NCBI RefSeq assembly: GCF_056746865.1
Contig: NZ_CM163382.1
Reading direction: 5' to 3' (one strand)
DNA length: 64,000 bases
Part shown: positions 4,295 through 6,599 of the stretch, piece after piece
Position numbering within the stretch: the first letter of the stretch is position 1
Layout of the letters: each line of letters begins with the position of its first letter
Program-made: the position numbers and the translations under genes
Notes under the pieces: model-generated
Databases searched by the model: none
What the model was told of the DNA's origin: nothing
What the model saw: only the letters and a program-made list of their open reading frames with translations

Positions 4295-4940
4295 AAAATT
4301 TTCTCCATGTAGGTTGTCGGCTACTGTTAGGTTTCAATCTTGATTCAGGCTTCTCACGCTTTTTTTAAAATCTGGACAACGAGGCTGCACTGACTTTTTC
4401 AGCTCACCTCAGATTGCACCATCCCATACACATAGCTCAGATTCCTAATGTTCAGTATAAGGAGGCCAGAATACGAATTGCCCTTACCGCTAGTGCCAGC
4501 GCGTTGAGTTTAGTAGATGCCTTATTCATTTAGAATTTGATAAAAATACAAGACTCGGACAACAAGCTGCAATATTAATCGTTATTTTTCCACTCGAGGC
4601 CCACCGTCCGTTTCTGGCACAGGGCTGCTGTTGCAGCCCTGAAAACCTTAGACTTCAATCGATTCAAAGATCTCTAATGCATCATCTACTTCAATACCCA
4701 GATAACGGACTGTGCTTTCCAGTTTCTTATGGCCCAACAGAAGTTGGATCACCCGAAGATTCTTAGTTTTCTTGTAGATAAAGTAGGGTTTTGTTCTTCT
4801 CATGGAACGTGTGCTGTAAAGCGAATCTTCGAGACCAAGCTTTCCTGCCCACCCATGAAAGATTCGGTTGTATTGTAGGGTTGATATGAACCGCCCCGGA
4901 AATCCTGGAGACTAAACTCCCTGAGAAAGAGGTAAACAGG

Positions 4941-5267
4941 ATGACTAAAAATACTCGTTTTTCCCCCGAAGTCCGTCAGCGGGCGATTCGTATGGTTCTG
5001 GAAAGTCAGGATGAATATGACTCACAGTGGGCGGCAATTTGTTCCATTGCCCCAAAGATTGGCTGTACGCCGGAGACTCTGCGTGTCTGGGTTCGCCAGC
5101 ATGAGCGGGATACCGGGGGCGGTGATGGTGGGCTCACCAGCGCTGAACGTCAGCGTCTGAAAGAGCTGGAACGTGAAAATCGTGAACTGCGCCGCAGTAA
5201 CGATATCCTTCGCCAGGCTTCCGCTTATTTTGCGAAGGCGGAGTTCGACCGCCTCTGGAAAAAATGA
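4941..5267 (+). CDS. IS3-family transposase OrfA (IS629-like)
   Basis: 108-aa [25 protein letters not shown]... with HTH and leucine-zipper region typical of IS3-family OrfA. Confidence 0.9.
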
Positions 5268-6154
5268 TGCCACTGCTGGATAAGCTGCGTGAGCAGTACG
5301 GGGTCGGACCGGTATGCAGCGAACTGCATATTGCCCCGTCAACGTATTACCATTGTCAGCAACAGCGACATCATCCGGATAAACGCAGTGCCCGTGCGCA
5401 GCACGACGACTGGCTGAAGAGAGAGATACAGCGCGTATACGATGAAAATCATCAGGTGTACGGTGTGCGTAAAGTCTGGCGTCAGTTGTTACGGGAAGGA
5501 ATCAGGGTGGCCAGATGTACAGTGGCACGTCTCATGGCGGTTATGGGACTTGCCGGTGTTCTCCGGGGTAAAAAGGTCCGTACGACCATCAGCCGGAAAG
5601 CCGTTGCCGCAGGCGACCGCGTAAACCGTCAGTTCGTGGCAGAACGACCTGACCAGCTGTGGGTGGCTGATTTTACTTACGTCAGCACATGGCAGGGCTT
5701 CGTCTATGTGGCGTTTATCATTGATGTGTTTGCCGGATACATCGTGGGGTGGCGGGTCTCATCGTCTATGGAAACGACATTCGTGCTGGATGCGCTGGAG
5801 CAGGCGTTGTGGGCCCGTCGTCCGTCTGGCACCATCCATCACAGCGATAAAGGCTCTCAGTATGTGTCACTGGCCTATACGGAGCGACTAAAAGAAGCCG
5901 GATTACTGGCATCAACAGGGAGTACAGGCGACTCGTATGACAACGCGATGGCTGAGAGCATCAATGGTCTTTACAAAGCGGAGGTAATACACCGTAAGAG
6001 CTGGAAAAACCGTGCAGAAGTGGAACTGGCCACACTAACGTGGGTGGACTGGTATAACAATCGACGATTGCTGGGAAGGCTGGGCCATACTCCTCCGGCA
6101 GAAGCAGAAAAAGCTTATTATGCTTCCATCGGAAACGATGATCTGGCAGCCTGA
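5264..6154 (+). CDS. IS3-family transposase OrfB (DDE integrase domain), overlapping orfA in the -1 frame
   Basis: 296-aa ORF with DDE-type catalytic region; overlaps orfA as expected for programmed frameshifting. Confidence 0.9.
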
Positions 6155-6560
6155 GTTCACAGATAAAACACTCTCCAGGAAACCCGGGGCGGTTCAATAT
6201 GTGCTGATTAGTTCCGATACGAGACCGGAACAAGAAGTCTTTATTGTGCAAATAATCAAGCTTTATCAATGCAGCAATAGCTTCTCTTGTTCCTTTGGTT
6301 ATCTCAAATTGCACAGGGCTACCGGTTTTCTGTTGCAACACCGTTGCTCTGCTTGAAACCAAGCGACCATATGCCACATCAGATACTTTGAGTTTGACCA
6401 GATCACAGCCTCGAAGCTTACTGTCCAGGGCCATATTGAACAGAGCTAAATCGCGCGTTTTGCCTTCCAGTTCAAGCCGGATTCGGGTCCCCCAGATATG
6501 AGATATCTGAAGTGGTCTTTTTTGGCCGATGATACGGTCTTTGTTCCACGGTGACGTGTT

Positions 6561-6599
6561 CATACTCAAATCTCCTGCAATGTGGGAGATTTGAGTATG
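6561..6599 (-). promoter_or_regulatory. 15-bp perfect inverted repeat (39-bp hairpin) covering the SD and start codon of the recombinase gene
   Basis: catactcaaatctcc (6561-6575) and ggagatttgagtatg (6585-6599) are exact reverse complements with a 9-nt spacer. Confidence 0.4.

Follow-up and report, generated by a model that had tools for sequence, protein, structure and literature searches.

The 64,000-nt window analysed here (NCBI RefSeq assembly GCF_056746865.1, contig NZ_CM163382.1; positions given without a locus number refer to it) carries on its minus strand a gene for a small tyrosine recombinase, which is cut in two by the insertion sequence (IS) IS629. We propose, with about even confidence, that this interrupted gene is a defunct member of an integron-like cassette system not described before. 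In such a system minimal recombinases of ~200 amino acids (aa), each encoded within its own double-palindrome site, would excise and insert cassettes, many of them anti-phage, at co-oriented arrays of ~70-nt sites in prophage hotspots, integrative and conjugative elements (ICEs) and islands across the Gammaproteobacteria. The basic facts on the IS split and the gene are nearly certain. For the comparisons, 79 further recombinase loci were taken from a scan of species-representative genomes (family loci are numbered with the prefix L), and cassettes were compared by an all-against-all alignment of the family loci.

Module ends, mini-sites and cassette boundaries

When the flanks of the family loci were aligned, conservation began and ended abruptly, delimiting a module of ~700 bp between unrelated flanking sequences. 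In gene orientation the module reads GTCCGCT-nnTCGCTCAyrAGGGAC - AACCATACTCAAATCTCC-N9-GGAGATTTGAGT-ATG ... TAA - N6 - CAGGGCTGC-AACA-GCAGCCCTG-TGCCAGrAGCGGAC. It starts with Box A (GTCCGCT-CCTCGCTCAy-AAGGGAC) and ends with Box B (...CCCT-GTGCCAGr-AGCGGAC), the general palindromic form of a box being GTCCGCT-N10-AGCGGAC, and the two module ends are imperfect inverted repeats (GTCCGCTCCTCGCTCAT vs the reverse complement GTCCGCTTCTGGCACAG, 13/17).

Besides the module, most Enterobacterales loci of the family contain gene-less mini-sites, which were found by BLAST and then with an nhmmer profile. A mini-site of ~70 nt consists of two 24-bp palindromic boxes, A and B, joined by a linker of ~19 nt, and its consensus in gene orientation is AAy-[GTCCGCT-CCTCGCTCAC-AGCGGAC]-CTTCAGCTCAGTnAnnTn-[GTCCGCT-nyGTGCCAGG-AGCGGAC]-rTT. 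The recombinase module thus has the structure of a mini-site in which the gene replaces the linker. In the window the following parts were located, the two mini-sites lying on either side of a gene for the anti-phage protein PD-T7-5:

1663..1748, minus strand: gene-less mini-site upstream of the PD-T7-5 cassette (nhmmer E 1.9e-20; same orientation as the recombinase)
3052..3136, minus strand: gene-less mini-site (Box A - linker - Box B) separating the cassettes of PD-T7-5 and DS-11 (nhmmer E 7.9e-20; same orientation as the recombinase)
4606..4647, minus strand: right end of the module, with the stem CAGGGCTGC-AACA-GCAGCCCTG followed by the spacer and the outer arm of Box B, GTGCCAGAAACGGAC (the sequence conserved among loci ends at 4606)
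6603..6618, minus strand: left end of the module, inner half of Box A, TGCGCTCATAAGGGAC in gene orientation, with the outer arm GTCCGCT absent (~45 loci compared, and the junction with a miniature transposable element with inverted repeats, or MITE)

A 58-nt direct repeat that flanks the PD-T7-5 gene (1679-1736 and 3066-3123) carries both module-end sequences. These two mini-sites are the only ones in the 64 kb, and both lie in the island and on the recombinase strand. Elsewhere in the family, mini-sites separate adjacent genes of the islands, prophages and ICEs that carry the recombinase; they lie on both sides of its gene and are 0.4-9.8 kb apart. In 38 non-redundant loci, 81/83 mini-sites (E < 1e-4) were co-oriented with the recombinase gene. 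One mini-site variant, searched for in E. coli, was found at 1-3 unannotated intergenic places in 906 genomes; the sites are a low-copy, island-linked repeat and not a family of the repetitive extragenic palindrome (REP) type.

The boxes also mark the limits of DNA that different genera have in common. Hafnia L018, Enterobacter L020, Citrobacter L022 and Klebsiella L023 have segments of 99.9% identity in common, the ends of which fall at boxes or module ends: in L018 and L022 a stretch of 2,998 bp (99.9%) begins 54 nt upstream of the recombinase ATG and extends to the following mini-site, and in L018 and L023 one of 4,067 bp (99.9%) extends between a mini-site and the module's right end. Box A differs at these breakpoints in its outer 9 nt (GTCAGCAGA vs GTCCGTTCC), while from TCGCTCAT inward all is identical, and in Box B the switch point lies within GTGCCAG, between GTGCCA and G. 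Enterobacter L020 equals L018 (99.97-100%) with an additional 1.5-kb cassette, which follows GTCCGCTTC^TCGCTCA with neither duplication nor loss; Pectobacterium L039 has that cassette (95% identical) between the same half-boxes. The L020 insertion bears the signature of a conservative, site-specific recombination event in the spacer of Box A. Moreover, cassettes that lie downstream of the recombinase in one genus are found upstream of it, or between two mini-sites, in another (L030/L037, L026/L030, L044/L081). Since boxes bound the segments that genera have in common, cargo included, it is the stretches between the sites that move. The association of the embedded recombinase with the boxes suggests that it catalyses this exchange.

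The interrupted gene, its protein and its family

An earlier note on this DNA, made from the letters alone, had described a short, Fim-type tyrosine recombinase of ~190 aa, split cleanly on the minus strand by an IS629-like element and probably inactivated recently. The description of the split was borne out by the features listed here:

4648..4886, minus strand: 3' part of the recombinase coding sequence (CDS), codons 122/123-200 and stop, with Arg148, Arg151, His174 and the nucleophile Tyr183 (frame reconstruction, alignment)
4884..4886 (left copy) and 6197..6199 (right copy), no strand: 3-bp target-site duplication ATA (removal of one copy gives the sequence of 126 genomes)
4887..6196, plus strand: IS629/IS1203 of the IS3 family, 1310 bp (boundaries read, terminal repeats, transposase model, 100% identity)
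4941-5267, plus strand: IS629 orfA (IS3-family transposase model matched)
5222-5338, plus strand: ALIL frameshift pseudoknot inside IS629 (Rfam RF01497, 121.5 bits)
5264-6154, plus strand: IS629 orfB (IS3-family transposase model NF033516, 316 bits vs cut-off 160)
6197..6563, minus strand: 5' part of the recombinase CDS, codons 1-122, with the catalytic residues Arg51 and Lys79; 6197-6199 is the second ATA copy (frame reconstruction, alignment)

The element begins at 4887 with TGAACCGCCCCGG and finishes at 6196 with CCGGGGCGGTTCA, its terminal inverted repeats being imperfect (22/25 positions match), and the copy matches IS629/IS1203 elements of E. coli O157:H7 and of numerous further strains with 100% identity. 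Its length of 1310 bp, TG...CA ends and terminal repeats, two open reading frames (ORFs) with a programmed -1 frameshift and the ALIL pseudoknot, 3-bp duplication and identity place it in the IS629/IS1203 group of the IS3 family. It differs from known copies in its insertion site alone: the IS junction of the window occurs in 0 of 5,426 complete RefSeq E. coli genomes.

After removal of one ATA copy the frame resumes beyond the IS, and the minus-strand join of 6563->6200 with 4886->4648 yields an uninterrupted frame of 200 codons, a 603-bp gene. Such a frame across the joined halves is far beyond chance. A single intact protein had thus been recognised correctly by the earlier note, and only its length, 200 instead of ~190 aa, had to be revised. 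IS-free alleles, the check it had suggested, exist: the reconstructed empty site (4300-4886 + 6200-6900, 1288 bp) has a full-length match in 126 complete E. coli genomes, 100% identical among the records listed. These genomes have one intact 603-bp CDS annotated there, WP_001305755.1, a 200-aa 'tyrosine-type recombinase/integrase', and for this reason the two halves are parts of one gene rather than of different genes in IS-free relatives. Since IS and duplication are intact and the flanks are identical to the empty sites, the insertion is recent. IS629 cuts the CDS between codons 122 and 123, and the insertion is clean, recent and inactivating. By itself, the entry of IS629 into the gene of an accessory recombinase is ordinary variation between strains; of more consequence is which gene was struck.

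Another allele of the recombinase gene was hit independently. In E. coli BE311 (NZ_CP097213.1; L002 6161-7470), and also in strains F41 and EC24.26, a second IS629 (1310 bp, 99.5% identical, ATG duplication) cuts exactly at the codon for catalytic His148, and the rebuilt protein is an intact 200 aa.

The assignment to the short tyrosine recombinases held. Pfam Phage_integrase (PF00589) matched residues 35-184 (E 2.1e-14), and the AlphaFold2 model (predicted local distance difference test score, pLDDT, 83.5; predicted template modelling score, pTM, 0.79) has the canonical catalytic fold, so that by profile match and by fold the protein is a member of the tyrosine recombinase superfamily. The best Foldseek matches of the model were XerA (5hxy, E 8.5e-9), Tn1549 Int, Cre, XerH and VchIntIA, at 13-19% identity, with a probability of 1.00 for XerA, Cre, XerH, lambda Int and IntI. 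The protein consists of the catalytic domain and a conserved basic N-terminal tail of ~35 aa, the first ~19 residues being predicted as disordered; a helical N-terminal core-binding domain is absent, as seen from both the Pfam span and the model. Across 64 distinct family sequences R51, K79, R151, H174 and Y183 are invariant, and H148 is present in 63/64, the lone exception being the window allele with Arg148.

More specific resources assigned the protein to no known group. No sequence match was found among the PDB chains, all NCBIfam models remained below their curated cut-offs, PHROGs returned the generic phrog_216 'integrase', and the only PADLOC match was weak and unrelated (HORMA, E 0.0045, 15.1 bits). 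A word-indexed protein search gave at least 8000 matches, the best 120 of which are 74-99% identical and come from Escherichia, Proteus, Providencia, Pantoea, Idiomarina, Cycloclasticus and others. The recombinase therefore belongs to a very large, unnamed and uncurated family of ~200-aa proteins without a core-binding domain in Enterobacterales and many other, mostly gammaproteobacterial, lineages. A literature search that included the box sequences, with most subscription journals outside its reach, returned no account of the recombinase family or its sites.

Family members occur in very different surroundings. E. coli alleles that are 88-93% DNA-identical lie in a lambdoid prophage (L003), in an island adjoining a dynamin-like gene (L004, L002) and in the gap between tail-fibre and tail-sheath genes of a P2 prophage (L005). 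One 100% identical Proteus protein adjoins SMC-like, SIR2/HerA, TIR or DUF3800 genes, varying by genome, and a relative in a marine ICE is located between arsenic- and copper-resistance blocks. In the P2-like prophage L005 (E. coli NZ_OZ039653.1) the recombinase is accompanied by two small genes, one of them DUF5677, between the tail-fibre assembly and tail-sheath genes; weak partial box matches at 10679-10719 and 13093-13138 of that locus (E 0.003 and 0.02) bracket the group, so the module also occupies a phage moron hotspot. Two recombinase copies within 10 kb were seen at L030, L048, L053, L054, L055, L065 and L087, and frameshifted copies at L058, L059, L067, L072 and L081, which suggests frequent duplication and decay of the module.

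The start of the gene is covered by one further element of the module:

6561..6599, minus strand: perfect 15-bp inverted repeat with a 9-nt loop over the recombinase start codon, pairing the Shine-Dalgarno (SD) sequence and AUG with an upstream anti-SD (-28.1 kcal/mol, z -4.84)

When 58 distinct family 5' regions were folded one by one, the SD was likewise at least 75% paired in 54 of them (median z -3.5). The pairing sequences differ across the family (TCTCC/GGAGA, GCCCT/AGGGC, ATTCC/GGAAT and others), and since the arms vary in a compensatory way around SD and AUG we regard the repeat as an mRNA hairpin. RNAalifold gave no consensus for the family 5' regions, in which the stems were misaligned by MAFFT. 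As judged from these foldings, the hairpin may keep translation silent on read-through transcripts. A lox-like site at the start codon (6561-6599) was considered and discarded, as the window holds no second copy at up to 3 mismatches. No sigma-70 consensus promoter for the recombinase was found in 4500-6900; a conserved CATACT/CATAAT upstream of the hairpin is a candidate -10 element only.

Cargo of the arrays and damage to the window copy

The array of the window runs in the order DHFR-like gene, mini-site, PD-T7-5, mini-site, DS-11, recombinase module and the ORFs at 6873-7799:

1083-1622: DHFR-like gene (position in the array)
1796..2866, plus strand: anti-phage protein PD-T7-5, cassette gene (PADLOC PDLC04110, E 9.8e-102)
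3197..4294, minus strand: CBS-domain anti-phage protein DS-11, cassette gene (NF053863, 404.9 bits vs cut-off 260)
6873-7499, plus strand: 208-aa ORF in cassette position beside the recombinase (no NCBIfam, PADLOC or Pfam match)
7524-7799, plus strand: 91-aa ORF in cassette position beside the recombinase (no NCBIfam or PADLOC match)

From their position near PD-T7-5 and DS-11, the 208-aa and 91-aa ORFs are candidates for an undescribed pair of defence genes. Among 10 hand-picked cassette proteins of other loci, 7 gave PADLOC matches to models of defence systems, namely PD-T7-1, HEC-08, Ppl, LmuB of Lamassu, PDC-S15 and PDC-S20, and the neighbours of the family in Proteus include SIR2/HerA, TIR and SMC-like genes. 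Overall, the cargo is a mixture of accessory genes with a strong defence component.

In the window the module has suffered further damage next to the start of the gene:

6619..6773, no strand: MITE, 155 bp, with perfect 14-bp terminal inverted repeats (GGCTGTGTGAAAAC), in the Box A spacer (derived from the IS1182 family; same junction in other genera)

The outer arm of Box A is absent beyond the MITE. The same ends, GGCTGTGTGAAAAC, bound a 1.76-kb IS of the IS1182 family in Rouxiella L059 (8187-9945; NF033551, 312.8 bits vs cut-off 270). In Edaphovirga L053 (3746-3900, 5524-5678 and 11000-11152) and Rouxiella L059, a MITE or IS sits at exactly the same point of Box A, and another copy lies in a box-like palindrome of Marinobacterium L076 (17643-19344). 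These insertions are accompanied by duplications of 6-8 bp (CGCTCA; TGTGCGCA). By its insertion points in four genera, the IS1182-type IS/MITE appears to be a site-specific parasite of box spacers.

A third lesion concerns the active site. The window allele, WP_001305755.1, which is found in ~126 E. coli genomes, has His148Arg at codon 148 (4802-4804, minus strand) in the catalytic HxxR motif, and this exchange may have impaired the recombinase before the arrival of the IS. With IS629 in the CDS, the MITE in Box A and His148Arg, the copy appears from its sequence to be dead or crippled three times over. Because of this triple damage, the PD-T7-5/DS-11 array would be fixed in place in the window strain, frozen unless a related recombinase acts in trans.

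Two observations concern other parts of the window. The Rfam IsrM small RNA model RF02763 matched 8568-8824 (plus strand), just upstream of a ypjA-like autotransporter gene, with 66.5 bits (E 8.5e-17) against a much higher gathering score of 376. In a cluster resembling argQZYV-serV, ARAGORN called a tRNA-Arg(tcg) at 51737-51808 (plus strand) that overlaps a tRNA-Arg(acg) at 51752-51828 (minus strand); the tRNA-Arg(tcg) call is probably a mirror-image false positive.

Proposed mechanism, alternative readings and known systems

We consider it fairly probable that recombinase and boxes together form an integron-like cassette platform. The recombinase would bind the 7-bp inverted arms of the boxes, and strand exchange would take place in the conserved spacers, TCGCTCA of Box A and GTGCCAG of Box B. 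Recombination between directly repeated boxes would excise the intervening DNA as a circle, and in the reverse reaction a circle would be inserted into a box, so that the arrays would behave like integron cassette arrays served by a different enzyme and different sites. The hairpin at the ribosome-binding site would prevent expression of the enzyme from read-through transcripts.

Several points weigh against this proposal or narrow it. The putative action of the recombinase on the boxes is suggested by association and by breakpoint positions. With 10 bp, the spacer between the 7-bp arms exceeds the usual 6-8 bp, and the binding and cleavage positions are putative. Two hairpin models of the mini-site, one with two local hairpins and one with a single long hairpin, were 81% and 71% paired and exhibited no covariation beyond shuffled controls, so that nothing supports an attC-like folded substrate; for this reason the boxes were treated as double-stranded protein-binding sites. 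As to the window itself, Arg at position 148 may not abolish catalysis, and the PD-T7-5/DS-11 array was found in one context only in 130 E. coli genomes with no sign of shuffling at the locus. Shuffling of the PD-T7-5 cassette within E. coli was considered and dropped on this ground; a single array context is expected if the window recombinase has long been inactive. Finally, the PADLOC rate of 7/10 stems from a hand-picked, not unbiased, sample, and many cassettes hold accessory genes of an ordinary kind, among them those for transporters (MFS and CDF), hydrolases, a TonB-dependent receptor and regulators of the AraC or WYL type.

Among the alternatives, the one to which we give some weight, while holding it unlikely, takes the ~700-bp module as a selfish, IS-like mini-element with the tyrosine recombinase as its 'transposase', the mini-sites as non-autonomous deleted derivatives, and the genes as bystanders in permissive, fast-evolving islands. 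It would account for the imperfect terminal inverted repeats of ~17 bp (13/17) and for mini-sites that are exactly both ends of the module, as well as for the two or decayed copies within 10 kb at several loci, the low copy number per genome and an RBS-hiding hairpin that resembles the protection of IS elements from read-through. Independent transposition would, however, give random orientations, yet 81/83 mini-sites are co-oriented. Moreover, the module has the inverted ends of a classical IS or MITE but lacks target-site duplications, which were found neither at module ends and mini-sites nor at the L020 cassette insertion, and the segments exchanged between genera are bounded by boxes and include cargo, so that it is the DNA between the sites which moves. 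A selfish origin does not, however, preclude cassette mobilisation. Less probable still is a resolution or maintenance recombinase of the Xer type, comparable to XerS/difSL, XerH/difH or Cre/loxP, that would resolve multimers of its host prophage, ICE or island at a dif-like palindromic box. The best sequence and fold matches are indeed Xer proteins (XerA, 46 bits; 5hxy, E 8.5e-9), the gene adjoins a putative palindromic site as in single-recombinase Xer systems, and it is found on ICEs and prophages. Every Xer model nevertheless stays far under its cut-off (XerA 46 vs 220, XerC 39 vs 335, XerD 25 vs 330, XerS 23 vs 267 bits), and the core-binding domain of the two-domain Xer architecture is missing, so that neither score nor architecture places the protein among them. 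Nor does this role fit several arrayed sites per locus with cargo breakpoints at the sites, the 100% identical protein in unrelated chromosomal contexts of Proteus, or the presence in small chromosomal islands, which lack a replicative form that could be resolved.

The earlier note had taken the protein for a phase-variation recombinase of Fim type, which would flip a nearby promoter segment and thereby switch a neighbouring gene, as FimB/FimE do at fimS. This we regard as very improbable. In its favour, the recombinase shares with FimB/FimE a size of ~200 aa and the lack of a core-binding domain, is divergently transcribed from the 208-aa ORF, and gives weak matches to 'tyrosine-type DNA invertase' models; the intergenic region also contains one candidate invertible segment, a 127-nt stretch flanked by 14-bp inverted repeats without mismatch (6619-6632 and 6760-6773). 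Of the profile comparisons that the note had recommended, the one with Phage_integrase succeeded, whereas the FimB/FimE models NF007371 and NF007370 scored 20.8 and 16.1 bits vs curated cut-offs of 222 and 221, less than the Xer models, which score better yet also fail. The LLGH...RY motif that had been read as FimB/FimE-like is present; it is generic to the catalytic domain and not Fim-specific, so that the resemblance comes down to size and this motif. A query in which the 127-nt segment was inverted gave no match of at least 80% coverage in 5,426 complete E. coli genomes, with the forward form in ~126. Promoter inversion was ruled out, as every genome with the locus has the single orientation. 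The repeat-bounded segment is itself the IS1182-type MITE, which has several copies in other genera. Furthermore, the flanking genes of the family are unrelated between loci, and so no regulated target is conserved, and the mini-sites are direct repeats (81/83), which predicts excision and integration rather than inversion. The Fim-type reading is thus largely refuted, and the label does not stand.

If the cassette-platform proposal is true, its consequences go beyond this locus. Hochhauser et al. 2023 (PMC10121019) described defence islands with integrase-type genes only, for which the means of mobilisation were unclear; defence systems swap between hotspots of prophages, satellites and islands, and for many islands the mobilisation mechanism is missing (PMC10121019). 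The recombinase and its sites would supply such a mechanism for these 'integrase-only' islands and would represent a second, integron-independent cassette platform in bacterial genetics. The family is very widespread, with no curated model and no description in the literature searched, yet it has defined sites, co-oriented arrays and in-site breakpoints. The sites could be used to delimit cassettes and to find new defence genes, for example the ORFs at 6873-7799, and the very small site-specific recombinase might have value as a tool.

Among known systems, FimB/FimE, together with HbiF and IpuA/B, resemble the recombinase as ~200-aa, catalytic-domain-only tyrosine recombinases of the E. coli accessory genome with LLGH...RY. 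In contrast to them it is no family member by sequence, has no invertible element present in both orientations, and is associated with direct-repeat sites and variable neighbours.

By function, the integron would be the closest known system. In both, a tyrosine recombinase is combined with directly oriented, imperfect palindromes that form same-orientation arrays and separate promoter-poor cassettes of one to few genes. The attC site is classically described in the 59-base-element literature as two simple sites of paired 7-bp inverted cores, and each site here can likewise be viewed as two 'simple sites', each a pair of 7-bp inverted cores. Both systems also have a site-specific parasite, the IS1182-type IS/MITE in the box spacer being comparable to IS1111-attC elements. 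Cassettes exchanged between genera with breakpoints inside the sites are a further likeness, as is the frequency of anti-phage genes among the cargo, which is reported for sedentary chromosomal integrons (bioRxiv 10.1101/2024.07.02.601686). The differences are equally clear. IntI has ~320 aa and a core-binding domain, whereas the recombinase has 200 aa and none; the IntI structure is a mid-ranking fold match, and NF040815 (XerA_Arch, 'site-specific tyrosine recombinase/integron integrase'; no other integron-integrase model was listed) gave 46.3 bits vs a cut-off of 220, so that the protein is not of the IntI type. The boxes GTCCGCT/AGCGGAC are unrelated to the GTTRRRY R boxes of attC, and a folded single-stranded substrate is unsupported for the mini-sites. 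Instead of standing at the array end beside attI and the cassette promoter Pc, the recombinase gene lies inside a site in mid-array, flanked by Box A and Box B and with sites on both sides. The cassette genes here point both ways, and the arrays are found inside prophages, ICEs and islands.

The pdif modules of Acinetobacter plasmids are accessory-gene modules bounded by short palindromic recombinase sites and occur in many contexts. They are similar to the present cassettes as discrete accessory modules between short palindromic sites. However, pdif modules depend on the host Xer proteins and have 28-bp XerC/XerD sites of alternating orientation, whereas the sites described here are double 24-bp boxes of uniform orientation with a dedicated, embedded recombinase gene.

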